A stretch of 64,000 bases of DNA from an uncultured Eubacteriales bacterium (GTDB lineage Bacteria > Acidobacteriota > Aminicenantia > Aminicenantales > Aminicenantaceae), in NCBI GenBank assembly GCA_964584935.1, contig CAZPBN010000012.1, forward strand, positions 17,094 through 81,093, given 5' to 3'. Positions within the stretch are counted from its first letter, which is position 1. Each line of letters opens with the position of its first letter. The position numbers were made by a program, and so were the translations under genes. The notes under the pieces were generated by a model. That model searched no databases and was not told the origin of the DNA. It saw only the letters and a list, made by a program, of their open reading frames with translations. Positions 37,671-60,107 of this stretch are shown here, piece by piece.

Positions 37671-38993
37671 ATGAAATTAAAAACTTTTACCCACGGCATT
37701 CATCCTCCTGAACACAAGCAGAGAACAGAAGAAAAAAAAATAGTTCCCTTCACATCTCCAGAGAAGGTGGTCATTCCTCTGAACCAGCACTTCGGGAAAC
37801 CGGCTGAACCAATTGTCAATAAAGGGGATGAAGTCCTTCTCGGCCAGAGAATTGGAGAAAGCACAGCTTTTTGCTCAGCCCACATACACTCCAGCGTTTC
37901 AGGAAAAGTCTTATCAGTCGATACTTATTATCATCCTGTCTGCGATTCTTCCCTTGCTGTCACCATAAAAAACGACGGAGAAGATCGCTTATCTCCTGAA
38001 CGGAAAGGATACAAAGATCCCTTTTCTTTGCCCCCTGAAAAAATCCAAAACGCTATCAAGGAAGCTGGGATCGTAGGCCTGGGAGGAGCGGCTTTCCCCA
38101 CAGCTATCAAACTGGCTCCTCCAAAAGACAAGCCCGTTGATACCCTCATCATCAACGGTTGTGAATGCGAGCCCGTGCTCACTTCTGACTATAGACTGAT
38201 GCTGGAGCATCCAGACGATATCCTTAAAGGGGCAGAGCTCGCCCGAATAGCCTCTGGCGCCAAACGGATCATTGTCGGTATTGAAGACAACAAGAAAAAA
38301 GCCTATGACCATTTAAAGGAAAAAGCCAAAACAATTCCGGCAGAGATCGCTCTCCTCAAAACAAAATATCCCCAGGGAGCAGAAAAGAATTTAATCCATG
38401 CTCTTCTTAAAAAAGAAGTTCCACGCGGAGGGCTTCCTTTTGATGTTGGAGTGGTTGTCCAAAATGTGGGAACAGCCAAATCCATTTGGGATGCCCTGAG
38501 TGAGGGGAAACCTCTCTATGAAAGAGTAATAACTGTTTCTGGAAATGGGATAAACAATCCGAAAAATATTCTGATCCGGCTAGGAACTCCTTTTCAGGAT
38601 GCCATCGATTTCTGTGAAGGAATAACCGAAGATGCCAACATTATTGTCATGGGTGGCCCTATGATGGGAATTGCCCAATGGACTCTCGAAGCACCTGTCA
38701 TCAAAGGCACCTCTGGGATTTTGGTTTGGGAAGCTGAACCTTCCAAGCAAGAATATTCTTGTATAAAATGTGGCCGTTGTGTTGAACACTGTCCTATGAG
38801 ATTGTCTCCGACCCAGCTGGCAAAATATGCCCAATTTGACAAATTAGCAGAGGCAGAAGCCTGGGGTATTCTGGACTGTGTCGAGTGTGGATGCTGTCAG
38901 TATTCCTGTCCTTCAAAAATTCCTCTTGTCCACTGGATACGCCTGGGCAAAAACAAAGTCGCCTGTTTAAAAAGGAAGAATAACGCCCGATGA
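37671..38993 (+). CDS. rnfC: Rnf complex subunit C (NADH-binding, 2x[4Fe-4S])
   Basis: RnfC N-terminal barrel sandwich, GxGGAxFP-like GLGGAAFPT, two ferredoxin motifs CIKCGRCVEHCP and CVECGCCQYSCP. Confidence 0.9.
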   Translation: MKLKTFTHGIHPPEHKQRTEEKKIVPFTSPEKVVIPLNQHFGKPAEPIVNKGDEVLLGQRIGESTAFCSAHIHSSVSGKVLSVDTYYHPVCDSSLAVTIKNDGEDRLSPERKGYKDPFSLPPEKIQNAIKEAGIVGLGGAAFPTAIKLAPPKDKPVDTLIINGCECEPVLTSDYRLMLEHPDDILKGAELARIASGAKRIIVGIEDNKKKAYDHLKEKAKTIPAEIALLKTKYPQGAEKNLIHALLKKEVPRGGLPFDVGVVVQNVGTAKSIWDALSEGKPLYERVITVSGNGINNPKNILIRLGTPFQDAIDFCEGITEDANIIVMGGPMMGIAQWTLEAPVIKGTSGILVWEAEPSKQEYSCIKCGRCVEHCPMRLSPTQLAKYAQFDKLAEAEAWGILDCVECGCCQYSCPSKIPLVHWIRLGKNKVACLKRKNNAR

Positions 38994-39952
38994 AGGAACG
39001 ATCATTATTCATCCAATCGTCCCCTTTCTTCACTGACAAAGATTCCACTCCAAAAATAATGTACACGGTGATTCTGAGTCTCGTTCCGGCAATCTTTTCA
39101 TCGATTTATTTTTTCAGGATGAAAGCTTTCTTCATTTTCATATCCAGTATCGCAGCCTGTATGATAACCGAAGCCGTGATTCTCTGGATCAGGAAGAAAC
39201 CGTTGAATTCAGTTCTGGACGGATCTGCCATCATAACAGGTCTTCTTCTGGCGATGACTCTTCCCCCTTCCCTACCCCTGGAATTTGTGGCCATTGGCGC
39301 TGTGGCTGCCATTGCCATAGGAAAACAGGTTTTCGGCGGGCTGGGGTACAACATATTCAATCCTGCGTTGGTAGGAAGAGCCTTTCTGCAAACCGCTTTT
39401 CCTGTGGCAATGACAACATGGACTCCTCCCATAACTGTTAAAGTCGACCTTTCAACCTTTGCCACTCCTCTGGCTGATTTAAAATTCGAAGGAATCCTGG
39501 CTTCTCTCAAAGACCTTTTTTGGGGGAATACAGGGGGCTGCATTGGAGAAACATCCGCTTTGGCCCTCATTCTGGGAGGCCTTTATCTTCTCTACAAACA
39601 GACCATTGACTGGCGTATTCCTGCAGGGATTATTCTTTCCTTAAGTGCTTTCACCGGGATTTTCTTCTGGCTGATCAATGACGATAAATACGCGTCTCCA
39701 GTATTTCATATACTCTCCGGGGGACTGCTCATTGGAGCTATTTTTATGGCGACTGATATGGTCACATCCCCCATAACTCCGCGCGGAAGCTGGGTTTATG
39801 CTGTGGGTATCGGAATCAATATTGGACTTATCCGTCTTTTCGGAGGGTTCCCGGAAGGAGTTATGTATTCCATTCTGTTCTGGAATACATTTGTTCCTTT
39901 GATCAACCGTTACACCCGGCCAAAAATCCTGGGAGAGAGGAGGAATTTATGA
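38990..39952 (+). CDS. rnfD: Rnf complex subunit D (NqrB/RnfD family)
   Basis: 320 aa polytopic membrane protein; FMN-attachment region SGGLLIGAIFMATDMVTSP. Confidence 0.85.
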   Translation: MKERSLFIQSSPFFTDKDSTPKIMYTVILSLVPAIFSSIYFFRMKAFFIFISSIAACMITEAVILWIRKKPLNSVLDGSAIITGLLLAMTLPPSLPLEFVAIGAVAAIAIGKQVFGGLGYNIFNPALVGRAFLQTAFPVAMTTWTPPITVKVDLSTFATPLADLKFEGILASLKDLFWGNTGGCIGETSALALILGGLYLLYKQTIDWRIPAGIILSLSAFTGIFFWLINDDKYASPVFHILSGGLLIGAIFMATDMVTSPITPRGSWVYAVGIGINIGLIRLFGGFPEGVMYSILFWNTFVPLINRYTRPKILGERRNL

Positions 39953-40554
39953 ATCTTTCTTTGAGGATGATTCTGGTCTTGACATCTGTGGGCCTTCTCT
40001 CCGGGATTCTCCTCACTGGAGTCAATCTGGCGACAAGAGAAAGAATCGAAGAAAACAAACAACAAGAAATTAAAGATGCCATCACTGACGTCGTTCCTGG
40101 CACTCAATCCAGCCCGGTCATCCATGATGAAGAAAATCTTACTGTCTACAAAGGAACGAACAAAAAAGGGGAAACGACAGGGTATGCCATCTACTCTTCG
40201 GGCACAGGCTTCCAAGACAAAATCACCATTATGCTGGGGATTGATTCGTCTCTTTCCAAAATAAACGACCTTGTTATTCTAGAACAGACAGAAACACCCG
40301 GGCTGGGAGCCAAAATTACAGATGAAAAACTTTTCTTGCGGTTCTGGAAGAATAAGGACATCCGCCAACCATTGACACTTCATGAACCGGCTGTCAACGC
40401 CCCTAATAAACTCGGCCCTTCAGAAGTTAACACAATCACGGGAGCAACCATATCCTCTGAAGCGGTCTTAAATATAGCCAATAAGTCCATAAATCAGGTG
40501 AGATCCCTGTTGGACAAAGAAAAATATAAGAGCAAGGAAAACAATGGCAACTAA
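39949..40554 (+). CDS. rnfG: Rnf complex subunit G (FMN-binding)
   Basis: N-terminal TM anchor, FMN_bind motif TITGATISSEAV. Confidence 0.85.
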   Translation: MNLSLRMILVLTSVGLLSGILLTGVNLATRERIEENKQQEIKDAITDVVPGTQSSPVIHDEENLTVYKGTNKKGETTGYAIYSSGTGFQDKITIMLGIDSSLSKINDLVILEQTETPGLGAKITDEKLFLRFWKNKDIRQPLTLHEPAVNAPNKLGPSEVNTITGATISSEAVLNIANKSINQVRSLLDKEKYKSKENNGN

Positions 40555-41155
40555 AAGTCTCAGTCAAGAATTTGTCAAAGGCTTGTGGGAGGAAAATGCT
40601 GTGTTCCGGCAACTTTTAGGAATGTGTCCCACCCTTGCTGTAACCAATGCGGTTATCAACGGGATTGCCATGGGATTAGCCACCACATTTGTTCTCGTCT
40701 TCAGCTCCCTGGTCATATCATCAATCAAAAAAATAATCCCCAATCAGGTACGCATTGCCTGTTATATTGTGATCATTGCCACTTTTGTCACCATGGCAGA
40801 CCGCTTTCTCGCTGCCTTCTTCCCTCCCATATCCAAGGCACTGGGTCCTTATGTTCCTCTTATTGTGGTGAATTGTATCATCCTGGGAAGACAGGAAGCT
40901 TTTGCTTCAAAAAATCCGGTAGGACGCTCCCTTATCGATGCTTTGGGCATGAGCACCGGCTTTATAATGGCTCTGCTCATACTAAGCTCTATAAGAGAAC
41001 TCCTGGGCACAGGTGCCATTCTGGGATATCAAATAATGGGAACCTGGTTCAAGCCCTGGACCATTATGATTCTCCCTGCAGGAGCATTTATAACCCTGGG
41101 CTTATTACTGGGACTTTTTATTTTTATTGAAAATAAAATAAATCCAAGGAGATAA
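40544..41155 (+). CDS. rnfE: Rnf complex subunit E
   Basis: 203 aa, 6 TM, RnfE/NqrD family. Confidence 0.85.
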   Translation: MATKSLSQEFVKGLWEENAVFRQLLGMCPTLAVTNAVINGIAMGLATTFVLVFSSLVISSIKKIIPNQVRIACYIVIIATFVTMADRFLAAFFPPISKALGPYVPLIVVNCIILGRQEAFASKNPVGRSLIDALGMSTGFIMALLILSSIRELLGTGAILGYQIMGTWFKPWTIMILPAGAFITLGLLLGLFIFIENKINPRR

Positions 41156-41157
41156 AT

Positions 41158-41733
41158 TTGGAACTTATCGCTATTTTCATATCCGCCATATTGATCAACA
41201 ATTTTGTTCTCCATTATTTTCTTGGAATCTGTCCCTTTCTGGGAGTATCAAAAAAAATTGACTCTGCTCTTTCCATGGGACTAGCGGTTACCTTCGTCAT
41301 GACGATCACAGCAGTGGTCTCATGGGTCATCAACAACTGGATTCTCATTCCTAAAAATCTTGACTTTTTACAGATTGTATCATTCATTCTCATCATCGCT
41401 TCTCTGGTTCAACTGGTCGAAATGTTTATCCGTAAAGCAAGCCCTCCTCTTTACCAAGCTCTGGGAATTTATCTCCCCCTCATCACAACCAACTGTTCGA
41501 TCATGGGGCTGGCTCTTCTGGCGGCTCTGAAAGAATATTCATTCTTAGAAGCTGTTGTTTTTGGAATGGGATCTGGAATTGGATTCACCCTCGCCATCGT
41601 ACTGATGGCTGGCATCAGAGAACAATTAGACCTGGCGGATGTGCCGGAGCCTCTAAAAGGCGCAGGCATTTCTCTGATTGTTGCCGGAATCATGGCTCTT
41701 GCATTCTTAGGTTTTTCAGGGATGATAAAATAA
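41158..41733 (+). CDS. rnfA: Rnf complex subunit A
   Basis: 191 aa, 6 TM, RnfA/NqrE family. Confidence 0.85.
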   Translation: MELIAIFISAILINNFVLHYFLGICPFLGVSKKIDSALSMGLAVTFVMTITAVVSWVINNWILIPKNLDFLQIVSFILIIASLVQLVEMFIRKASPPLYQALGIYLPLITTNCSIMGLALLAALKEYSFLEAVVFGMGSGIGFTLAIVLMAGIREQLDLADVPEPLKGAGISLIVAGIMALAFLGFSGMIK

Positions 41734-42569
41734 TGGATTTATTGTGGCCAATTATCACAATGGGTGCCTTGGGGCTCCTGTTCTCAACAGGTCTTGTCTT
41801 TGCCTATAAAAAGCTGAAAGTCTCTATAGATCCAAAAATAGAACAAATTTCAGAGCTGCTTCCCCAGGCTAACTGTGGAGCCTGCGGATTCAGCGGGTGC
41901 CAGGCTTTTGCCGAAGCAGTTGTCAATAATAAGGTTAATCCGAGTGAATGCCCTATTAGCGGAGATGAGACTGCTGAACAAATTGCAGATATACTGGGAG
42001 TGAAATCCGAAGAGAAAAAAGTAAAAAAAGTAGCTCGCATTCTCTGCCGGGGGACCAAAGAAGCCGCCAAAGAGAAAGGGCAATATCTAGGAGTTCCAAG
42101 CTGTGCTTCCGCGCATCTAATTGGAGGGAATAAGAGCTGTTCTTTCGGATGTTTGGGTTTCGGAGATTGTGCTCGAGCCTGCCCTTTTGATGCAATTGAG
42201 ATGAAAGATGACGGTCTCCCTCATATCATCGAAGAAAAATGCACGGCATGCGGAATTTGCGTTGAGGAATGTCCAAGAAATATCATCGAACTTTTTCCTC
42301 TTTCCCAGAATATATTCGTTTTCTGCCGATCCCACGACAATGGCAAGATCTCAAGAAAAGTCTGTAAAAACGCCTGCATTGCTTGTAATATATGTGTCAG
42401 AGCTTGTCCGGAGGCTATCGTTCTCGAAAACAATCTGGCGAAAATCACGGACGTTAAAAAAATTGATGAAGATAAAATTCCTGCCAGCCAGAAATGTCCC
42501 ACAGGAGCTATAGGACTTCTCAAAAAGGAAGACAATAAGGATAACGATAAGGATAATGATGAAAGATAA
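41733..42569 (+). CDS. rnfB: Rnf complex subunit B (polyferredoxin)
   Basis: N-terminal TM, CGACGFSGC motif, multiple CxxCxxCxxxCP ferredoxin motifs, Asp/Lys-rich tail. Confidence 0.85.
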   Translation: MDLLWPIITMGALGLLFSTGLVFAYKKLKVSIDPKIEQISELLPQANCGACGFSGCQAFAEAVVNNKVNPSECPISGDETAEQIADILGVKSEEKKVKKVARILCRGTKEAAKEKGQYLGVPSCASAHLIGGNKSCSFGCLGFGDCARACPFDAIEMKDDGLPHIIEEKCTACGICVEECPRNIIELFPLSQNIFVFCRSHDNGKISRKVCKNACIACNICVRACPEAIVLENNLAKITDVKKIDEDKIPASQKCPTGAIGLLKKEDNKDNDKDNDER

Positions 42570-42996
42570 AGCATTCGTTATAAAAACTGAAAAAAACGGC
42601 ATGGCGCAAGTCAAAGTCACTCCTTCAATCCCTTGTCAAAAATGCCGGGCAAAGGACCTATGTGTAGGAGCCAAACAACATAACGGGCTTTTGAGAGTCA
42701 AAAATCAAATCAATGCTCAAGAGGGAGATAATGTCATCATAGAAATTCCGGATACATATTACAATAAAAATCTCATCTTTCTTTTCACTTCTCTTCTTTT
42801 GGCTTCTCTCTTGGGGATGACTGCCGGGTATCTATTGTCTTCATTCATTCCCTTCTCCCCTCAGACCACAAGTGTGGCTGGGCTTTTTGTTTCAGTTGTC
42901 ATAGCTGGAGTTGTTCTTTTTCGCATACTCCGCAAGAAAAACAATTCAGATTTTTTTCCGGTTATAATAAATATACAGGGAGGTTCTCATGGATAG
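42556..42996 (+). CDS. rseC: RseC/MucC family protein (Rnf-associated, SoxR-reducing-system component-like)
   Basis: 146 aa; N-terminal Cys cluster CQKCRAKDLC followed by two TM helices; overlaps the rnfB stop. Confidence 0.65.
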   Translation: MMKDKAFVIKTEKNGMAQVKVTPSIPCQKCRAKDLCVGAKQHNGLLRVKNQINAQEGDNVIIEIPDTYYNKNLIFLFTSLLLASLLGMTAGYLLSSFIPFSPQTTSVAGLFVSVVIAGVVLFRILRKKNNSDFFPVIINIQGGSHG

Positions 42997-43720
42997 ACGC
43001 AATTTCTTTAAAAAAGTACTGGTGACACCAGCTCTGTTTCCTTTTCTTTTTGCATCCAAATCGCAAAACCACTCTTTTGATCTCTTTATCATCTCAGAAA
43101 AACCATCTTCCATTCTCATTAAACTATTGGAAGGGCTAAAAGTATACGGTATGAATCCCGGGAAGAAATTTTCTTTTTTAAATAAACATCCTAAGGAAAA
43201 ATTTCTTATAAAAACTCTCTCCGGCAAAGGATTGAAACTCACCCAGAAAAACCAATGGGCAGATTTCACTCTTAGTTTCAGCCGTTTGCAGCGTTCCTGC
43301 TTTCCTTCATTCTCATTAGTCAAAGAAGGAAACTTGTTGGATATCAGATCCAGAGATCTCTATTCCCTGTGGAAAAAAATGAGCAAGAGTCAGCCTTCAT
43401 CCATGGTCACCGTTGCGACGTTCCAATCCAATTACAAATCATTGAACCCAGGAAAAACAGCTTCTGTCTTCATAAATGGAGAAATGACAGAGAAAATAAG
43501 TTTATATAATAATGCCGTTAAAACCTATCATCTTAAAAATGGAACAATAAACGTTGTGGTTTCTGAAAGAAAAGCCTGGATATCCGATTCGTGCTGTCCC
43601 CAAAAGATTTGTTTATATTCCACACCCATATCACTGGAAGGCGAAAGAATTATCTGTGCTCCCAATCATTTCCTTATACAAATAGACTCTTCTTCTTTGA
43701 TTGACACTGTCATCGGATAA
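42989..43720 (+). CDS. Tat-signal (RRNFFKK) exported protein of unknown function, translationally coupled to rseC
   Basis: MDRRNFFKKVLVTPALFPFLFAS twin-arginine signal. C-terminal Cys motifs SDSCCPQKICL and IICAPN. No assignable domain. Confidence 0.4.
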   Translation: MDRRNFFKKVLVTPALFPFLFASKSQNHSFDLFIISEKPSSILIKLLEGLKVYGMNPGKKFSFLNKHPKEKFLIKTLSGKGLKLTQKNQWADFTLSFSRLQRSCFPSFSLVKEGNLLDIRSRDLYSLWKKMSKSQPSSMVTVATFQSNYKSLNPGKTASVFINGEMTEKISLYNNAVKTYHLKNGTINVVVSERKAWISDSCCPQKICLYSTPISLEGERIICAPNHFLIQIDSSSLIDTVIG

Positions 43721-46439: not shown

Positions 46440-49373
46440 TTAAAAGTCAAAACCGATCCATAATTTCGTCTCAAAATTATCTGTGACATCGAGGTCAAAG
46501 GGACTTGAAATATCAGAAATACCAATTCTTTTCACAAATTCAATGTGAACAGGAAACCCGAGGAAGAAGAACTGGAAACCAAAACCGTAGGAACCCAAAG
46601 CATCGAAAACGAGAAGACCTTGTTCGTAATCAAATATATAAATATGACTTCCATATCCCTTGATTTTTGCTCTTGACATATCAAAAAATATTGTTCCCCG
46701 GACAGGACCGATTTGGCCGATTAATGTGGATGCATTATTGATCACCGGAAACCTGAATTCTATATTGGCATACCAGCCTTCATTGGCAATGATGCTGTAA
46801 TAATAGGCAGAACGCACCTGGTTGTTTCCTCCATAGTAAAAAACGAATGGATTTTCTCCGAAACTGGAGAATCCTTTGAATCTCGTGGCAAAAAGAAAAT
46901 CACCGCCCAGATAGAGGTACTGTCTGAGATCTGCTTCGAGGGTTGTGTTGTCAATAAAGTTGCTGGTAATGGGAATGGACTGACGGGCAGAAAGACTGAA
47001 GGTGTTTCCTGTGAAAGGACCATATGATTTGAATCGGGTTGTTTCTCCCACAAAAGCAAGAGATGCCGCAAGGAGATTGCCATTCCAGAATTGGCCGAAA
47101 TTGGAAGTGGTGAGATAGGCAAAATCTTCTTCATAGTTGTAAAAACCCAAACCGGCTTCTAAACGGAGAAACTTGCTTAGAGGATAAAGGGCTTGCAAAA
47201 AAACTCCTGTAATTTTGCGGGTGGCAATGGCTTGGTCGTATGATAATCTGTAATATAAGGTCGGATCGAAGTAATAATATTCAGGATAGTAAAATATTGT
47301 GTAGTGAAAAGCGCTCGCCATATACTGCAACCGTCTTTTTCTATTGATAAAAGAAAAACTGTAGGAACGGAATGTCCTTACCTGGTAGGCACTCAGAGTA
47401 AAAGTGTAGTCTTGAAAAAGGTCTGAAAACGATATGGACGTTCCTCCAAAGATGGAACCGTCGGTTGTGACCAGAGCTTCAACTGGAGGTTTTGAAGTCA
47501 GGAAAAATTTTTGCATTCCCTTATAAGGGCTGATTTTCTTTTCGTTTATATCAAAAGTGAGAATGGGCTCAAATTTTTGGTATTCTTCATCTGATTCCTT
47601 TTTCTCAAATTGGATTGTTCTTTCTTCTGTTCCTTCAAATTCGCTTATGTACACTTGGAAAGCGCTTTTGTTGAAGGATGAGAATAAAATTTTTTTGGAA
47701 TCAGAAGGAAGGGGAGTGGGAAGGAAATTTCCAGTTCTGACATCAGTGTATCTGACAAGCTTTCCTGTATCTAATTCCAGAGAATATAGATTGTAAGCAT
47801 CCCTTTGGTCTCCGGAGAAATATATTTTTTTGGAGTCAGGAGAGAAACAGGGAGTTATTGAGTTATTGTCACCAAAAGTCAACTGTGTTTTTTCCCTTAA
47901 ATCATTTGCCGGGGAAAGAAAAAGCTTGTCATATTCCCCGATATGAATTGTGTAGGCAATCAGCTTGCCATCCGGTGATATTGTGGGGGCTTTTTCAAAT
48001 AAATCATCGTTGGTTAACTTTTTTGTTTTCTCTGTAGAAAGATTTATTTTAAAGATATCGTGTTTTCCTTCGTGAAAGGCAGAAAATAAAAGCTCTTTTC
48101 CTCCAGGGTAAAAACAGGGAGAGGAAGGCTGGTCAAAAGGAATCTCAATTTTTCTCATTGTCTTTCCGGTGATAGAGTCGAGAAGAATAAGAGAATGTTT
48201 TTCCCCAACTCTTCCAAAAATTGCCAAGGTATTCCCGTCATCAGACCAGGACAAATCTCTTCCTTTTGAAGGGAAAATTTCGCTTTTGATATATTCGTAT
48301 TTGAGAGTATAGCCTTTGGTTATATTCTTAATAACAGAACCGTCTTTGACGGAGAGCAAGAGAATATCGCTTTCCCCGGATTTGACATTAATGGTTATGG
48401 TTGCAAGAACTTCTCCTGAAGGAGAAAGAGTATGAGAATAATTGAAAAAGTAAGGGTTGACCGGATAATTAGGACCAATTGGGAGGCTGTAATCTTCAGG
48501 ATTGCCTCTTAAAAAAAAGTCTTTATACCGGTTTCTCAGGTATTTTTTAAATTCGTGATAAAATTGCTTGAAGTCTTTATCAAAGACGTCATTGATGATT
48601 GGCTGCTTTTTAACAATTCCAAGACGAGGAAATTTCTTCATAGAATACCAAAGGTTCCTGATATACGCTTTTCCGTATTTTTCTTCGATGAATTCATAGA
48701 TAGCATGTCCAAAATTATAAGGGATCCTGAGCATAGGATAATTAGATTTCAAGGAACCATCCTCGGTTAAAACAGGAATCCGGTCGTTAAGAACAGCATC
48801 TCTGACCACTAAAGAGTCAAGAGTATTCCAGGTTTTGCTGTTGTATTCCGAGAATCCTTCCATGATCCATAGGGGAGGTTGGGAAAGGGTGTATAATGAG
48901 TTCCCTGGGCTTCCCCATAGAAGGTCAAACTCAAAAATATGGGTTAATTCGTGTTCTATAAGATTCTGCATTTCATCGAGAGTCATATCTCCCCTGATCA
49001 CCAATCGGTGAAGAATCGGTTCAGCAAATCCTAATACGCCAGGACTGACTCGCCCCAGATTCGTTTGTTCAAAGTCCGTGGAGGTTAAATAGTAAATCAG
49101 GGGAACCCGTTGAGAAAGATGATGCCTGAGAACCTGGCTTATTTGTTGGTAGGCGCTTTCAGCCATATTGGCAATTTCTTTGAGAATTTCTGGGGTTTTG
49201 ACATAATAGTAGATGTCGAAATGCTCAGTCTTATAGTGTTCCCATTGAATATTTTTATAAATGACTTTATTTTTTCCGTAATAAGGAAAATACACAGATT
49301 GGGCAAGAACAGAAGGAATTAAAAAAGATGAGATAAGAAGAAACGTTATGAGAATTGAAATATTTTTATTCAT
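46440..49373 (-). CDS. Secreted outer-membrane protein: HExxH zincin-like N-domain + PD40/TolB-type beta-propeller + C-terminal Omp85-like beta-barrel
   Basis: Signal peptide LIPSVLAQS; HELTHIFE...EGFSEY gluzincin-like motif; five PD40-like repeats (SPSGEVLA, DDGNTLAIFG, PGGKELLF, SPDGKLIAY, SPDSKKIYF); C-terminal ~400 aa rich in amphipathic beta-strands, ending ...LWIGFDF with terminal Phe. Confidence 0.5.
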   Translation of the reverse strand: MNKNISILITFLLISSFLIPSVLAQSVYFPYYGKNKVIYKNIQWEHYKTEHFDIYYYVKTPEILKEIANMAESAYQQISQVLRHHLSQRVPLIYYLTSTDFEQTNLGRVSPGVLGFAEPILHRLVIRGDMTLDEMQNLIEHELTHIFEFDLLWGSPGNSLYTLSQPPLWIMEGFSEYNSKTWNTLDSLVVRDAVLNDRIPVLTEDGSLKSNYPMLRIPYNFGHAIYEFIEEKYGKAYIRNLWYSMKKFPRLGIVKKQPIINDVFDKDFKQFYHEFKKYLRNRYKDFFLRGNPEDYSLPIGPNYPVNPYFFNYSHTLSPSGEVLATITINVKSGESDILLLSVKDGSVIKNITKGYTLKYEYIKSEIFPSKGRDLSWSDDGNTLAIFGRVGEKHSLILLDSITGKTMRKIEIPFDQPSSPCFYPGGKELLFSAFHEGKHDIFKINLSTEKTKKLTNDDLFEKAPTISPDGKLIAYTIHIGEYDKLFLSPANDLREKTQLTFGDNNSITPCFSPDSKKIYFSGDQRDAYNLYSLELDTGKLVRYTDVRTGNFLPTPLPSDSKKILFSSFNKSAFQVYISEFEGTEERTIQFEKKESDEEYQKFEPILTFDINEKKISPYKGMQKFFLTSKPPVEALVTTDGSIFGGTSISFSDLFQDYTFTLSAYQVRTFRSYSFSFINRKRRLQYMASAFHYTIFYYPEYYYFDPTLYYRLSYDQAIATRKITGVFLQALYPLSKFLRLEAGLGFYNYEEDFAYLTTSNFGQFWNGNLLAASLAFVGETTRFKSYGPFTGNTFSLSARQSIPITSNFIDNTTLEADLRQYLYLGGDFLFATRFKGFSSFGENPFVFYYGGNNQVRSAYYYSIIANEGWYANIEFRFPVINNASTLIGQIGPVRGTIFFDMSRAKIKGYGSHIYIFDYEQGLLVFDALGSYGFGFQFFFLGFPVHIEFVKRIGISDISSPFDLDVTDNFETKLWIGFDF

Positions 49374-54064: not shown

Positions 54065-54637
54065 TCACTTTTCTCTTCTAAGAATCCATTTTATCGCATC
54101 GAGCAAATTTGAGGCAATATATCCTGGTTCAATTCCTTCTTTTTTTAGAATTGGCAAAGATTTTGTTCCGAATCCTGTCAGGACAAGAACAGGGATGGCT
54201 TTGATGTTGAACCCGAATTGGATGTCTTCGACTTTATCTCCAATCATATAAGATTGTTCTAAATCAATATTCAAGTCTAATGATGCTCTTATAGCCATTC
54301 CAGGATTTGGTTTTCTGCATTGACAGTCTTTTTTATATAGAGGAATCTCAGAATGAATATAGTGAGGGCAGTAGTAAATCCCATCAAAAAAAGCACGGTG
54401 CTTTAAGAAGTCTGTTTTCAGTTTATTATGGATTTTATAAAGATTTTCTTCTTTGATTAGCCCCCTTCCTACTCCAGATTGATTGGTCACAATGACAGCT
54501 AATAATCCTTGTTCGTTGATTTTTTTCACAGCTTCAAAGCTGTGAGAATATATTTTTATTTGATCATAGGAGCAAGGATATCCAATATCTTCATTTATAT
54601 TCCCGTCTCTATCAAGAAATACCGCTTTTTTTTTCAT
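54065..54637 (-). CDS. gmhB: D,D-heptose 1,7-bisphosphate phosphatase (HAD family)
   Basis: AVFLDRDGNIN (DxDxT-type motif I), 190 aa, adjacent to the heptosyltransferase. Confidence 0.75.
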   Translation of the reverse strand: MKKKAVFLDRDGNINEDIGYPCSYDQIKIYSHSFEAVKKINEQGLLAVIVTNQSGVGRGLIKEENLYKIHNKLKTDFLKHRAFFDGIYYCPHYIHSEIPLYKKDCQCRKPNPGMAIRASLDLNIDLEQSYMIGDKVEDIQFGFNIKAIPVLVLTGFGTKSLPILKKEGIEPGYIASNLLDAIKWILRREK

Positions 54638-55713
54638 TCAATAAATTCTTTGCTTGCCTGATAAACTTCTTCAGCCTCAATTCGTTCCATACACCGATGG
54701 TCATAGGGACATTCCCTGTAGCTGCAAGGCCAGCAAGCAACATTTTTCTTAATTATTTTTGAGGGTTTCTGAAACGGACCTGTCACCCGGGGATCTGTGG
54801 GACCAAAAATTGATATAACTGGTGTTTTAAGAGCATTTGCCATATGCATGGGTCCGGAATCGTTGGTGATGAACAAAGAAGAATCGCTAATGATCCCGGC
54901 TAGTTGCCTGAGGCTGGTTTTTCCTATCAAGCTTATCGGTTTTTCTGGCACATATGAAATGATGGTTTCTGCTAACCAGGATTCGTTTTTTGATCCTGTG
55001 ATGATTATGGTTGCGTTTTTTCTTTGCTGCAGGAGGGTGGCTGTCTCTGCAAATTTCTTTGCAGGCCATCTTTTAGCAGATCCATAATAAGCCCCTGGGT
55101 TAAGAGTAATGAGGGGCTGTTTGCGATCAACATTCAAAGAGTCAAGGATTTTTTCAGATTCTTTTTTGTCTTCAGCCTTAAGAGGAAGAAACAGTTCTGA
55201 AGGATAAACTTTAAACCCTAATTTCTTTATGAGATCCCTATAATAATCAACCTGATGGATGAAAAGACTTTGGGTTTGGGAAGAAACTCCATTGGTTAAT
55301 AAAATGCTTCGTCCGTCCCGGCTGTATCCCCACCGTTCTGGGATTTTTGCAAGGGAAAAAAGCAGAGCAGAAGCAAATGAATTGGTCATAAGAAGGCCTG
55401 CATCGAACTTGTGTTCTTTTATTTTTTTAACTGAACTCTTCAAATCTTTTAATTTATTGGAAGGGGGGAGAAGAACAAAACCCTCAATGAAATCGAAGGA
55501 CTGGAATAATTCTCTCACCCATTCGTTGGCTGCGATCCATATTTGAGCTCCTGGGAAATTTTTACTCAGGCTTTTGATGGCAGGAACAGAAAGAATAGAG
55601 TCTCCAATCCAGTTAGGGACACGAATAATGATTTTCATGTGTCTCATTTTATTCTTTGCCTCAATAATTGTCAAAACATGCACAATAAGGAGTTCCGCTA
55701 AAAATGGCTTCAT
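54634..55713 (-). CDS. ADP-heptose:LPS heptosyltransferase (GT9)
   Basis: IIRVPNWIGDSILSVPAIKSL N-terminal GT9 signature, 359 aa. Cannot distinguish WaaC from WaaF. Confidence 0.8.
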   Translation of the reverse strand: MKPFLAELLIVHVLTIIEAKNKMRHMKIIIRVPNWIGDSILSVPAIKSLSKNFPGAQIWIAANEWVRELFQSFDFIEGFVLLPPSNKLKDLKSSVKKIKEHKFDAGLLMTNSFASALLFSLAKIPERWGYSRDGRSILLTNGVSSQTQSLFIHQVDYYRDLIKKLGFKVYPSELFLPLKAEDKKESEKILDSLNVDRKQPLITLNPGAYYGSAKRWPAKKFAETATLLQQRKNATIIITGSKNESWLAETIISYVPEKPISLIGKTSLRQLAGIISDSSLFITNDSGPMHMANALKTPVISIFGPTDPRVTGPFQKPSKIIKKNVACWPCSYRECPYDHRCMERIEAEEVYQASKEFIE

Positions 55714-55828: not shown

Positions 55829-56146
55829 TTACTTGTGGGAAGGCGTTGAAGATTCTTTTTCTTTTTTAATTGAATCCTTTGACTCTTTTTTCTGGTTTTT
55901 GTTGCCGTCTTCTTTTTCCGGTTTGTTTTTACGGGCATAATCAGTGATGTACCAGCCGCTTCCTTTGAATTGTATGGCAGGTGGAGAAATTATTTTTTTT
56001 AATTTGCCTCCACATTCAGGGCATTTTTTCAAAGGGAGATCGGTGGCTTTTTGTAACATTTCAAATGTCTTGTTGCATTTTGTGCATTTGTATTCATATA
56101 TTGGCATTTTGACCTTCTTTGTTATTGCAAAAATATTGACATTCAT
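55829..56146 (-). CDS. FmdB-family zinc-ribbon protein
   Basis: [16 protein letters not shown]...CPECGG; likely start at Met14 (about 56107); Lys/Glu-rich tail. Confidence 0.6.
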
Positions 56147-56362: not shown

Positions 56363-57796
56363 TTAGTGGAAGACGTCCGCTTCAAAGATGAATATATTGG
56401 CATCCTTTTTCCAGGCATCGGGCGGCAGCCCTGCTTTCAGGCAAGTCTGTTCTAAAAAGGTTTCTCTTGTCCAGTTGTTTTCGACAGGGACTTGAGGTAA
56501 AAGAAGCCCTCTCTTATCTCCTTGGGAAATAACAAGACCATGTTTTCCCACTCTGATTGTTTCTGGGTTTTTTATCTTTTTGACAGGGGAAAGGACAGAA
56601 ATTTCAATTTCCAGCTCATCCAATTCTGAAGCCGAAACAGGAGGGAATCTTGCATCTTTACATGCCGCATAAATAGCTGCCTGCAGGACTGTTTCGTAAA
56701 GAGGGGAAATAGGCTCAATAAATCCGATGCATCCTCTAAGGAGTCCATTTTTTTTTATAGTAACAAACGCTCCTCTTTTTTTTGCGAGATGAGTATTTTG
56801 AGGGTCATAATCAAGAACTGTTTTATTCTTGACATATTCATCGATGGCATGGCTAGCTAAATTTATCAGTTCCTTTTTTTCTTTTTTGGAAAGAAGGTTG
56901 CTGGGGATGCTCTTATTTTTAGTGATTGCTGCCGCAAAATAACCAACGACCTTGTCTTTTGTGCCTCCAAATTGAGAAGAGTCAGCGTAATGAAGGGTAT
57001 GAACTTTGAATTCTCCTTTTTGTTGAAGGTGAATGAGGGTGGAAAGAACAGGTCCTCCTCCGCACATAATATTTTCTCTATTGAGGACTTTGTTCAAAAG
57101 GGACTTAATTTTTATGTTTTCAATAAGAGAGATGGTTTCTAGGTCTTGTTTGTTTGCCTGTTTCTTAGGGTAAAAATGGGACATGTCTGTGGAAGCAATG
57201 ATCAATACCTTTTTTCCTTTCAGGGCTTTTGTTAATGCGAAAGCCAAAGTATTTATGACCTTTTCTGAAGGAACCCCCATTATAATAGGAACAATGTTCG
57301 CATGAGGAAGAATTTTTTGAATAAAGGGAATTTGAACTTCAATGCAATGCTCTTTCTGGTGGGCTTTGGGAATATAATTGAATCCGGAAGCAAGAGAAAA
57401 CTCCTCAGCCATTTGAGAGTCAATGTTCACAATTCCGAGAGGGGATTGATATCCTCCCTTTGGATAGATTGAGCATCCATGGAATCCATAATGGTGGGAA
57501 GGACCAATGATGACAACCGTTTCGTAATTTTTCCCCTGGACTGTTTTATAGGCAGAGGCAGCGACCATACCTGAATATTGATGTCCTGCATGAGGGATGA
57601 TGAGTGCGGATATATCTTCTAAAGAAGAGGACGGCTGTTTGGCTCTTTTAAGGAACTGGTCAATCTGTTCGGAAAGGGATTCAGCATCTGCGTCATAGAA
57701 CTTTCCTGCCCAGACAGGTTTTCGAATGCCCTGGGAAAACGCGAATTGACTCAGGAACACAAATGCAAATAAGATGACTATAGCTTTTTTTATCAT
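56363..57796 (-). CDS. Fusion of Memo-like (AmmeMemoRadiSam protein B) and AMMECR1 (protein A) domains with N-terminal signal peptide
   Basis: Signal/anchor MIKKAIVILFAFVFLSQFAFSQ; Memo motifs WAGKFY...IIPHAGHQYSG; AMMECR1 motif RGAFVTIKKNGLLRGCIGFIEP. Confidence 0.7.
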   Translation of the reverse strand: MIKKAIVILFAFVFLSQFAFSQGIRKPVWAGKFYDADAESLSEQIDQFLKRAKQPSSSLEDISALIIPHAGHQYSGMVAASAYKTVQGKNYETVVIIGPSHHYGFHGCSIYPKGGYQSPLGIVNIDSQMAEEFSLASGFNYIPKAHQKEHCIEVQIPFIQKILPHANIVPIIMGVPSEKVINTLAFALTKALKGKKVLIIASTDMSHFYPKKQANKQDLETISLIENIKIKSLLNKVLNRENIMCGGGPVLSTLIHLQQKGEFKVHTLHYADSSQFGGTKDKVVGYFAAAITKNKSIPSNLLSKKEKKELINLASHAIDEYVKNKTVLDYDPQNTHLAKKRGAFVTIKKNGLLRGCIGFIEPISPLYETVLQAAIYAACKDARFPPVSASELDELEIEISVLSPVKKIKNPETIRVGKHGLVISQGDKRGLLLPQVPVENNWTRETFLEQTCLKAGLPPDAWKKDANIFIFEADVFH

Positions 57797-57934
57797 GTCA
57801 CTCCACCTTCTTTAATTTTACCAGATAATAAAGACAAAGGTCTAGGGAGAAATTGAGAATAATCTTATTCCTGTTGGAACAGATATAAACTTGACAAAAT
57901 CGAAAAGCTTTCCTTTAATGACAATGGTGTTGTT

Positions 57935-58930
57935 ATGAAGGGCGAAGAAATATTTGAGAAATTGAATCTAAAGAAAGAAGACTTTGATGATTTGCATATC
58001 ACCAGGAATTTTTCTTCATTTGTTGCCGTGTCTCACGGTGAAATCATTCAAATGACAGATCCAATATTAACCCATTGTCCTTTATTTTCCAGGCTGTACA
58101 AAGGGAATCCGGGAGAAAAGAAAAAGGAAATTAGGAAAAGTATAAAAATGGCAGTGGAAAGTAAAATAAAAGAGTTTGGATCATTTACGGAAATACGAAA
58201 ACTTAAGCAGACTAAAATAGCTGTTCCCTATGGGGCATCAGAAATGATGATGTATGCGATTCGAAAAGGCTTTATAGAGGCAGCTCTTTCTGTGTGTGAT
58301 GGAGCCGGAAGCGTGATAACAGATTATCCGGCTTTAGTTCAGGGAATCGGAGCCCGAATGAATGGTCTGTTCTATACCACTCCTGTGAAGAAAATTATCG
58401 ATACCATTAGGAAAAACAGAGGGATTGTGGTCTTTCCAGACAACGCGGAGATTAACCAGGTTTTGGCTTTAGAGCATGCTGCTAGGCAGGGATATAAAAG
58501 AATAGCGGTTACAATCAATGGTTTTACAGATGAAGACATATCAGAAATCAAACCGATTGAAGGAAAGTACGGGATAAAAACTGTTGTGATAGTGGTTTGT
58601 ACAACGGATATATTAAAAGCGAGGACAGAACATATTGCCCGTTATGCGGATGTTGTCTGGTCATGTGCCTCTAGGAATGTGAGGGAAATCATTGGTTCAA
58701 GATCGATTCTTCAGATCACAACTGGAATTCCGGTGTTTGTTTTAACGCCCAGAGGGATGGAATTTGTTTCATCTTATAGCAATCAACCACAGGTGTTTCG
58801 TGAATTAGACCTGAATCGCCAATACTTGATCTCAGGGTATGTGAGAGGGCGACAGATTAAAATGGGACATATGTCCACGTATCTTACTGAATCCCGGCTT
58901 CCCATTCGAAGCAATAAAGAACCAAAATAA
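57935..58930 (+). CDS. Conserved hypothetical protein
   Basis: 331 aa, alpha/beta-like pattern, no recognisable motif (no CxxxCxxC); divergent from the Memo-AMMECR1 gene. Confidence 0.4.
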   Translation: MKGEEIFEKLNLKKEDFDDLHITRNFSSFVAVSHGEIIQMTDPILTHCPLFSRLYKGNPGEKKKEIRKSIKMAVESKIKEFGSFTEIRKLKQTKIAVPYGASEMMMYAIRKGFIEAALSVCDGAGSVITDYPALVQGIGARMNGLFYTTPVKKIIDTIRKNRGIVVFPDNAEINQVLALEHAARQGYKRIAVTINGFTDEDISEIKPIEGKYGIKTVVIVVCTTDILKARTEHIARYADVVWSCASRNVREIIGSRSILQITTGIPVFVLTPRGMEFVSSYSNQPQVFRELDLNRQYLISGYVRGRQIKMGHMSTYLTESRLPIRSNKEPK

Positions 58931-59419
58931 GGATTATTATGGCAAACATTTGTATAGGGCATCAAATTATGACGTTTTTATTGACTTTTTTCCTGTTTTA
59001 GATTAAAAATATAAATGGAAGGTTCAGATGAAAAAGATACTTAAGCCTCTTTTTACTATATTAATTTTTGGATCCGCTTTTTTTATTGGATACTACTTAG
59101 GTGAAGAAAAATTAAAAACCAAGATACCTGATTTTCAAGAAGATGAACGTTAGGTAAAGAGATTTTCTGATTCATTAAAAGGGGGAATTTTCTATTTTTT
59201 TTTCATATTGGGGATTTTTTTACAAAAGCTTCCCCAAAAATTACTTTAGAATCTGTATAAATTATTACTAATCAATAAGTTAGTTAAATTTTAAAGTGAA
59301 AAACTAATTTTTTGGGGCCCCCTTGACAGCTCTCCCCCCATCATGAAGCTTCCCCCCTCATTTTTAAATTTCTCTTTAAACCTTAAGACATCGTTTATAA
59401 GAGAATTTGTTCTCTAAAA

Positions 59420-59645
59420 GAATAAGGGGTGGCGCGGCGAAGGGGCTCCCCACCCGCACCACAGTTCTTTGGAGGGGGAACAGCTTCGCTTTCCCCCTTC
59501 CAACGGTCGCTCCGCTCCCTGCCTTTCCTTCTCGAGCTTCGCTCTGCGACCAAGGAGACGTACCCCCTTGGATCCTACATGGATTTGTTTATAAACAAAT
59601 CCTATTGGCGAGGACGGATGGGGAAGAGCCGTGACAGGACCCCTT
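59420..59645. ncRNA. GC-rich, hairpin-dense island (candidate structured RNA of unknown class)
   Basis: About 60% GC within >70% AT intergenic DNA. Terminal pairing AAGGGGT (59423-59429) / ACCCCTT (59638-59644). Internal hairpins GGAGGGGGAA...TTCCCCCTTCC, CCAAGG...CCTTGG, and 22-nt palindrome GGATTTGTTTATAAACAAATCC. Confidence 0.3.
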
Positions 59646-59780
59646 AATGTTTGTTGCTTCTGATGTTTATAATAGAAATTTAAAAATTGAGGGAACTTCA
59701 CTCATCTTCCCTTTGTTGACTAATGAAAGGTGTGCGTTTATAATCAAAAACAAAGCATTTATTAGATTTAGAGGAATGAA

Positions 59781-60107
59781 ATGAATTTTGGATTATATGG
59801 AATTATCATTATTTTTGCCCTTTTTTTTATCATTTTAATGGTCAATCCTAAAATATCTTGTTTTGGGAAAAAGATTAAATCCCCGTTTTATCCTCTTTTA
59901 AGAAAAAAAAAGAAAAAAAAGAAAGAGACAAAAACACAAGATTACGGATTTAAACTAGTGGATGGGGAGGTAAAGCAGCACTCGAAGAAAAAGAAGCACC
60001 CGAAAGCGAATTTAGAAAAAGTTGAAGATTATGGACTTAACCTTAATGATGACAATGAAAAAAATCTTGCCGAAAATAAAAAAAATAAAGGAAAAAGAGA
60101 TTCCTAA
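59781..60107 (+). CDS. Small membrane protein with Lys-rich tail (hypothetical)
   Basis: One TM helix then KKKKKKKETK...; SD GAGGAAT upstream; contains A9 and A8 homopolymers. Confidence 0.35.
   Translation: MNFGLYGIIIIFALFFIILMVNPKISCFGKKIKSPFYPLLRKKKKKKKETKTQDYGFKLVDGEVKQHSKKKKHPKANLEKVEDYGLNLNDDNEKNLAENKKNKGKRDS

Follow-up and report, generated by a model that had tools for sequence, protein, structure and literature searches.

The window analysed here, a stretch of 64,000 nucleotides of contig CAZPBN010000012.1 (assembly GCA_964584935.1, forward-strand positions 17,094 to 81,093), comes from an uncultured bacterium assigned to the Aminicenantaceae within the Acidobacteriota. This report concerns an open reading frame (ORF) on its minus strand, 56363..57796, whose 477-aa product joins a Memo and an AMMECR1 domain behind a predicted export signal. 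Conservation of Memo and AMMECR1 extends from archaea to humans, where MEMO1 has been connected with cancer cell migration and AMMECR1 with an X-linked syndrome, and both belong to the three-component AmmeMemoRadiSam system, whose third member is a radical S-adenosylmethionine protein (rSAM; SAM, S-adenosylmethionine) and which is usually described as cytoplasmic. No reaction is known for either Memo or AMMECR1. The gene is laid out as follows:

57801..57810, minus strand: Shine-Dalgarno sequence GAAGGTGGAG, 4 nt 5' of the ATG, read from the sequence
57731..57796, minus strand: residues 1-22, predicted as a signal peptide of the Sec type or a signal anchor (MIKK, a 16-residue hydrophobic core and AFS↓QG, the arrow marking the predicted cleavage site)
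56918..57730, minus strand: Memo domain (AmmeMemoRadiSam protein B), residues 23-293, from PF01875, TIGR04336 and Foldseek
56888..56917, minus strand: flexible inter-domain linker, residues 294-303, from low model confidence
56363..56887, minus strand: AMMECR1 domain (AmmeMemoRadiSam protein A), residues 304-477 and the stop codon, from PF01871, TIGR04335 and Foldseek

An earlier sequence-only reading had proposed that the ORF is a single-protein Memo-AMMECR1 fusion, and both Pfam and NCBIfam profiles bear this out. Residues 27-288 match the Memo family (PF01875; E 2e-62, 211 bits against a cut-off of 27, profile positions 2-267 of 269) and residues 312-476 match AMMECR1 (PF01871; E 5e-58, 196 bits against a cut-off of 25), while the corresponding AmmeMemoRadiSam profiles score 261 bits for protein B (TIGR04336, cut-off 26) and 195 bits for protein A (TIGR04335, cut-off 99). 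The motifs on which that reading had relied are also present, with PHAG at residue 68 and LRGCIG at residue 353. The N-terminus reads MIKKAIVILFAFVFLSQFAFSQ, as had been quoted, and contains the hydrophobic segment MIKKAIVILFAFVFLSQFAFS followed by QG. Translation from an internal start past this segment had been named as a possible objection, but the ATG at 57796 is preceded at 4 nt by GAAGGTGGAG, a strong Shine-Dalgarno sequence, and the single in-frame alternative within the hydrophobic stretch, a GTG at V13, lacks one. The ATG is therefore taken as the true start, and the hydrophobic N-terminus is thus translated. A scan for sigma-70 promoters and terminators around the gene returned counts equal to the shuffled expectation.

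An AlphaFold2 model of the fusion, built on a 40-sequence alignment, has a mean predicted local distance difference test score (pLDDT) of 94.4 and a predicted template-modelling score (pTM) of 0.67. In this model a lone helix (residues 2-21) lies outside both folds, the Memo fold spans residues 23-293 and the AMMECR1 fold residues 304-476, and the linker between them is disordered (pLDDT <50 at residues 296-299). As the pTM is only 0.67, the Memo and AMMECR1 domains are modelled without a predicted fixed packing, and the mature protein would consist of two enzymes, each folded independently of the other, joined by a short flexible tether. In Foldseek searches the Memo half matched human MEMO1 (7L5C, 3BCZ; E 3e-24, template-modelling score (TM) 0.81) and the AMMECR1 half matched Pyrococcus PH0010 (1VAJ; TM 0.79, root-mean-square deviation 1.4 Å), with no chain from the Protein Data Bank spanning both halves among the matches. 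The metal-binding residues of MEMO1 are His49, His81 and Cys244 (PMC9477392), with Asp189 and His192 close by. In the window protein H69, H100/H101, D204, H207 and C245 align with MEMO1 His49, His81/82, Asp189, His192 and Cys244, and across 40 diverse fusions (alignment A1) these positions are invariant or nearly so, so that the His/His/Asp/His/Cys metal site of the Memo domain, which is of the LigB-dioxygenase type, is complete. Similarly, the AMMECR1 motif LRGCIG occupies residues 353-358, of which G355, C356 and G358 are invariant in the same 40 sequences. Both halves of the fusion therefore look catalytically competent, as judged from conserved residues.

The N-terminal segment was compared across the closest relatives of the fusion. 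The best database match is 98% identical and, like many others, is labelled Candidatus Aminicenantes or Aminicenantaceae; all 120 matches listed are two-domain proteins of about 476 aa (56-63% identity), and 118 of these 120 orthologues keep the n-, h- and c-region architecture of a signal peptide. Within this clade the N-terminus comprises two to three basic residues, 15-16 uncharged hydrophobic residues and the sequence W-(S/P)-Q-G, which runs directly into the Memo strand IRKP, and the mean charge and hydropathy profile of the 110 alignable orthologues has the same tripartite pattern as the window protein. Pairwise identity among these 110 is 0.36 over the 21 residues before the Gln versus 0.54 over the next 60. 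Relative to the predicted cleavage site, position -3 is A, L, S, I, T, V or G, position -1 is S in 55% and P in 29% of sequences (otherwise A, T or G), and position +1 is Q in 110/110; at the W-(S/P)-Q-G junction, W is found in 73% and Q in 100% of clade orthologues. In the window protein the residues are Ala at -3 and Ser at -1, in keeping with the rule of small neutral residues at these positions and no Pro at -1 or +1, a rule from which the 29% of clade orthologues with Pro at -1 depart. No twin-arginine translocation (Tat) signal was found in it, there being no RR motif and no match to TIGR01409 or PF10518, nor a lipobox, as residues 1-30 contain no Cys. Because its physico-chemistry is conserved while its sequence drifts, the segment looks like a targeting signal, and the fusion N-terminus is predicted to behave as an export signal, in line with the earlier suggestion.

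The Gln at +1 recalls a feature described in another phylum. Under the 'Q-rule', a Gln following the signal peptidase I site is converted to pyroglutamate, a feature that PMC5837995 reports as specific to Bacteroidetes and not found in related phyla. Substrates of this kind (PMC5837995, PMC10653852) share with the 110 clade orthologues a Gln after the predicted site; however, the Q-rule is reported there for Bacteroidetes, and the Aminicenantes lie outside that phylum. The window's other secreted protein of the signal peptidase I type (46440-49373, minus strand) has a similar signal, VLA↓QS, again with Gln after the predicted cleavage site. Both signals, VLA↓QS and AFS↓QG, thus resemble the pyroglutamate Q-rule, in a comparison comprising two proteins only.

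Export-type N-termini are widespread among Memo-AMMECR1 fusions outside the clade. HMMER, run exhaustively over 1.84 billion cluster representatives, gave 20,276 matches, the best 150 of which are essentially all full-length fusions. Rule-based scripts assigned 149 non-clade representatives (clustered at 50% identity) to N-terminal classes: 119 have a Sec-like or lipobox-like N-terminus, 14 have no N-terminal extension, seven have a non-hydrophobic extension and nine were unclassifiable. Textbook signals occur among them (for example, ...FPAFA↓QEEE... and ...LFLSSC↓SPVGESSG..., the arrow here standing at the apparent junction), and other lineages replace the clade signal with lipoprotein signals or with AxA↓Q/E signals followed by acidic linkers. 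Lipoprotein signals with a lipobox Cys were found in 32-34 of the 149 diverse relatives (~22%), and a lipobox Cys is sensible only on an exported protein. A second scan, of one genome per species, yielded 80 fusion loci, 72 of them with a complete fusion ORF. The loci span the Omnitrophota, Desulfobacterota, Acidobacteriota, Zixibacteria, Nitrospirota, Bacteroidota (including Prevotella), Ignavibacteria, Calditrichota, Elusimicrobia, WOR-3, KSB1, Latescibacterota, Planctomycetota, Verrucomicrobia and Fibrobacteres, among others, and an export-type N-terminus is present in 61/72, across more than 15 phyla that are mostly diderm. The sequence-only reading had called an exported fused form unusual, had proposed looking for signals on fusions elsewhere, and had allowed that the fusion might prove common and routinely cytoplasmic. 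The fusion is indeed common, but these counts indicate that export, rather than a cytoplasmic location, is its predicted norm, with ~80-85% of diverse members bearing Sec-type or lipoprotein signals. Within this large, database-annotated family of mostly anaerobic, mostly diderm bacteria, the window gene is unexceptional and represents the Aminicenantes orthologue.

The rSAM partner of the fusion often carries a targeting signal of its own. A gene with the rSAM motif GCNxxCxFCQNW lies inside the fetched flank in 38 of the 72 loci, mostly on the same strand as the fusion and at a median gap of 9 bp. All eight adjacent rSAMs tested belong to TIGR04337 (325-395 bits, cut-off 220), and in each the profile match begins only after 29-102 extra N-terminal residues. 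Many of these extensions contain twin-arginine motifs of the RRxF[LI]K type (for example, MMDRRTFIKISS..., SRRDFFKKTAQ... and RRQFLKMSTA...), while Bacteroidota rSAMs have KR variants (NKREFLKQG...) and Omnitrophota rSAMs have Sec- or anchor-like segments. The TAT_signal_seq profile TIGR01409 scored above its curated cut-off in three of nine rSAM N-termini tested, with two more narrowly below. Among 120 rSAMs from a profile search, a sample biased towards partners of exported fusions, 58 had Tat (RR) signals, ~44 had Sec- or anchor-like segments and 11 had no extension. Within the 38 linked loci, an export-type fusion is paired with an export-type rSAM in 26 and with a signal-less rSAM in ten, both proteins lack a signal in two, and the combination of a signal-less fusion with an export-type rSAM was found in none. 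The description of AmmeMemoRadiSam as three separate cytoplasmic proteins, from which the sequence-only reading started, is accordingly incomplete, the rSAM itself bearing a Tat or Sec-like signal in 26/38 loci, and the whole three-component system appears, by signal prediction, to be extracytoplasmic in many lineages. A further 25 export-type fusions in the 72-locus set have no rSAM in the available flank.

Membrane proteins recur beside these genes. A polytopic protein of ~700 aa with a spermidine-synthase-like domain (PF01564; NF037959, a fused major facilitator superfamily (MFS)/spermidine synthase) is present in 17 loci and adjoins the genes for the exported fusion and the rSAM in several phyla (for example, L051:7697-9838, minus strand), while in Omnitrophota a DsbD_2/CcdA-like membrane protein is the recurrent neighbour instead (for example, L019:11625-12278).

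Several details of individual loci were also recorded. The ten loci pairing an export-type fusion with a signal-less rSAM are L055, L059, L065 (Prevotella), L060, L012, L021, L063, L074, L076 and L053; the rSAM in these might act before export, hitch-hike with its partner or have been given the wrong start codon. In L038, L040, L050, L066 and L082, from different phyla, the Tat-signal rSAM has an insert of ~60 aa between signal and rSAM core with a conserved CxxCH...H-D/x-H motif (example gene L040:8476-9714); the insert matched no Pfam family and may be a c-type haem attachment site. An apparent triple rSAM-Memo-AMMECR1 fusion in L053 was rejected as an artefact of longest-ORF calling, Pfam finding no Memo domain in that frame, and the 861-aa protein P0240 has a 400-aa N-terminus that is without family assignment and is not an rSAM.

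In the Aminicenantes the fusion gene occupies a different setting, next to a fixed set of genes without an rSAM. Three conserved neighbours lie immediately beyond it and are given here as context:

55829..56146, minus strand: FmdB-family zinc-ribbon gene (TIGR02605, E 2e-21)
54634..55713, minus strand: GT9 heptosyltransferase II, RfaF-like (TIGR02195, 221 bits, cut-off 135)
54065..54637, minus strand: HAD-family phosphatase (PF13242, E 5e-13)

The phosphatase gene overlaps the GT9 stop and is followed by relA/spoT, a position that suggests a putative GmhB. The fmdB gene is directly 3' of the fusion gene in every Aminicenantes-clade locus, and the gene order is rigid across the window, the complete 4.4-Mb genome CP070825.1, three other Aminicenantes contigs and the 49%-identity outgroup P0121: prs, ispE and a lolB-like gene are followed divergently by Memo-AMMECR1, fmdB, the GT9 heptosyltransferase, the HAD phosphatase and relA/spoT, beyond which lie a Tricorn-like protease and dnaA. 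On the other side of the fusion, and divergent from it, is a DUF2099/methanogenesis-marker-8-like gene (57935-58930, plus strand; PF09872 E 3e-77; TIGR03275 228.6 bits, just under the cut-off of 232.7), here in a bacterial host. The fmdB and heptosyltransferase neighbours had been recognised correctly from the sequence, whereas the 331-aa protein that had been called unassignable is this DUF2099 protein. It is not found at the syntenic position in other Aminicenantes loci and looks like a window-specific insertion. As a candidate partner of the fusion it was set aside, having no homologue in any other fetched locus and being missing from the syntenic Aminicenantes genomes.

The absence of an adjacent rSAM had been noted from the sequence and extends well beyond the immediate neighbours. 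No CxxxCxxC motif of the right kind was found among window ORFs of at least 100 aa across the 64 kb, and a translated search with ten rSAM cores found no TIGR04337 protein in the window and nine related loci (218 kb; best tblastn E 0.13). Nor did translated searches of these 218 kb of clade DNA find a membrane SpeE-like or DsbD-like gene. In the clade loci examined, among them the complete genome CP070825.1, the ±10 kb around the fusion contain none; a nearby TIGR04337 gene, which would mark the three-component AmmeMemoRadiSam arrangement, is missing from the window and from these loci. The next outgroups P0122 and P0124, like P0121, also lack a linked rSAM, and P0122 sits among envelope-glycan genes. 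A neighbour-joining (NJ) tree of fusion cores places the Aminicenantes clade and these outgroups together in a single branch of ten members, none of which has an rSAM within reach (eight with flanks of 5 kb or more on each side; L086 and L089 with a short flank on one side), while the sister branch of Omnitrophota and one Nitrospiraceae locus is mostly rSAM-linked. Because 0/10 branch members have an rSAM within reach, its uncoupling from the fusion is regarded as a trait of the lineage. That the window has no adjacent rSAM is no proof of an rSAM-less genome.

Two explanations of this uncoupling were weighed. The first, for which the case is about evenly balanced, is that gene order has drifted and the Aminicenantes system is complete, with a TIGR04337 rSAM, possibly Tat-targeted, elsewhere in the genome. 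Linkage is frequent for exported fusions in sister lineages (38/72 loci) and prevails in the NJ sister group, and a 2026 survey ranks AMMECR1 as the strongest anaerobe-indicator Pfam family (3% of aerobes, 51% of anaerobes; PMC13386939), a bias that fits oxygen-sensitive chemistry and is compatible with that of an rSAM. The 218 kb of clade DNA, with ±10 kb in the complete genome, and the ten tree members, two of them with a short flank on one side, nevertheless contain none; in addition, no rSAM with an Aminicenantes label was among the best 120 profile matches listed, a weak negative, as the family saturates the search (7998/8000 candidates passed E 1e-30). The second explanation, which we hold as a credible but tentative one, is loss of the rSAM from the clade, which would work with the exported Memo-AMMECR1 module on its own. 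The same 218 kb and ten tree members speak for it, eukaryotes retain MEMO1 and AMMECR1 without an rSAM, and the 25 rSAM-free flanks around export-type fusions of other phyla offer a parallel. However, missing from flanks does not equal missing from genomes, and both domains are constrained as strongly as in rSAM-linked relatives (alignment A1).

Taken together, the fusion is quite likely a Sec-targeted preprotein with an extracytoplasmic location, belonging to an exported family whose system would act on a target in the cell envelope and which, in the Aminicenantes clade, has become uncoupled from its rSAM. An envelope target is proposed because the rSAM partner usually has a Tat or Sec signal of its own. 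Under this model the Sec pathway would carry the fusion outside the cytoplasmic membrane, where signal peptidase I would cleave at AFS↓QG and release it into the periplasm, possibly with Q23 cyclised, or where an uncleaved helix would tether it. Metal-dependent chemistry would take place at the Memo site and a second step would fall to the AMMECR1 cysteine, with fusion and rSAM acting on an envelope-located substrate; in the Aminicenantes the fusion is uncoupled from the rSAM and lies in a fixed housekeeping cluster. Envelope glycolipids are hinted at as the target by the lipopolysaccharide-core neighbours and the glycan cluster around P0122, but these could equally be plain synteny and this choice of substrate is distinctly unlikely.

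Several observations weigh against an exported, cleaved protein acting in the envelope. Pro at -1, which disfavours signal peptidase I, occurs in 29% of clade orthologues, and the basic residues at +4 (R in 98%) and +5 (K in 83%) can hinder Sec export; both leave room for an uncleaved anchor in some members of the clade. The signal classes come from rule-based scripts rather than from a trained predictor or experimental localisation, and ten loci pair an export-type fusion with a signal-less rSAM. No supply of SAM or of low-potential reductants is known in the periplasm, which makes an exported rSAM mechanistically awkward. Finally, the evidence for an envelope substrate consists of location and of neighbouring genes whose presence may be mere synteny.

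A more elaborate version of the model, possible but doubtful, holds that AmmeMemoRadiSam also occurs as a complete extracytoplasmic system. It would comprise a fusion exported by a Sec or lipoprotein signal, a Tat-exported rSAM (some with CxxCH) and, in many loci, a membrane-embedded spermidine-synthase-like protein that binds SAM/dcSAM or a DsbD-like conduit for electrons, and its rSAM chemistry would run on an envelope substrate outside the cytoplasmic membrane; the Aminicenantes would be a derived form, its rSAM uncoupled or lost and the Memo-AMMECR1 pair left alone. A reading in which the N-terminal helix stays uncleaved, as a signal anchor (N-in, C-out) that tethers the domains to the periplasmic face of the inner membrane, is unlikely. 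Besides the Pro at -1, such an anchor would account for a W-(S/P)-Q-G junction far more conserved than a normal c-region, for a Memo domain that starts just 2-3 residues past the helix and for the one continuous 20-residue helix of the model, yet the cleavage site of the window protein is a canonical A-x-S, AxA sites followed by long linkers are found in many relatives, as are lipoboxes, which need cleavage, and Q at +1 fits the Q-rule for signal peptidase I substrates (PMC5837995). It is very improbable that the domains stay cytoplasmic behind a reverse (N-out, C-in) anchor or membrane-association helix, served by a cytoplasmic rSAM: R at +4 and K at +5 do roughly balance the N-terminal K/K, rSAM partners in ten loci are signal-less, and SAM and reductant are cytoplasmic, but relatives and partners carry, at this very position, lipobox-Cys and Tat signals that would be meaningless on cytoplasmic proteins, no locus pairs a signal-less fusion with an exported rSAM, and a 4-residue N-terminal segment is too short for a likely N-out topology.

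The predicted exported fusion can be set against several known systems. It shares with AmmeMemoRadiSam (TIGR04335, TIGR04336, TIGR04337) proteins A and B, both well above cut-off, and relatives with an adjacent TIGR04337 gene, but it departs from the standard in its B-A fusion order, its Sec signal and the lack of a linked rSAM in the clade. Human MEMO1 (3BCZ, 7KQ8, 7L5C) shares its fold (TM 0.81, 27% identity) and its metal-site residues with the Memo domain; in contrast, it is cytosolic, single-domain and eukaryotic, has been studied as a copper/iron-binding signalling factor and has neither a signal peptide nor a fused AMMECR1. Likewise, the archaeal proteins PH0010 (1VAJ), MM0484 (1ZQ7) and ST0229 (1WSC) share the AMMECR1 fold and LRGCIG, with 45% identity to PH0010, but are stand-alone, cytoplasmic proteins of ~200 aa without signal or Memo fusion. 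The LigB-type extradiol dioxygenases (for example, 2-aminophenol 1,6-dioxygenase, DesB and DOPA dioxygenase) have the superfamily fold of the Memo domain (Foldseek E 1e-6 to 1e-8, TM 0.5-0.6, and a weak PF02900 match), although identity is 10-17%, the Memo clade is without demonstrated ring cleavage and the host is likely an anaerobe.

The accessible literature contains no description of the export of Memo, AMMECR1 or the AmmeMemoRadiSam rSAM; Burroughs et al. 2019 (J Biol Chem 294:10211), the principal comparative work on the Memo superfamily, may already report some of the contexts. The exported state predicted for the fusion family and its rSAM partner is noteworthy and apparently under-described, and the value of the window gene lies in the family-level pattern that it exposes. 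If most fusions and many rSAMs are indeed extracytoplasmic, the search for a substrate narrows to molecules of the envelope, for example lipids, isoprenoids, glycans or exported proteins, and the supply of SAM and electrons to a periplasmic rSAM would become a puzzle. Cultivable carriers, such as Prevotella and other Bacteroidales, would make the questions of substrate and supply testable.

Three further features of the window lie apart from the fusion. A GC-rich island of ~250 nt (59400-59650; 56-62% GC) sits inside an intergenic region of 22-30% GC and folds better than shuffled sequence (z -3.4 for the minus and -2.7 for the plus strand). The island had no Rfam match even at E ≤1, the intergenic region flanking the fusion gene likewise gave none, and blastn against the syntenic loci found no counterpart of the island. 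A structured RNA of no known class, or what is left of a mobile element, could account for it. A 108-aa ORF at 59781-60107 (plus strand), which matched no Pfam family, combines a hydrophobic segment near its N-terminus with a tail rich in lysine and recurs at the same position in seven Aminicenantes-clade loci. Further away, a co-directional run of genes at 37671-43720 (plus strand) includes several membrane proteins and a ferredoxin-type Cys cluster, CKNACIAC, encoded at 41436-42566, and looks like a candidate Rnf-type electron-transport operon.

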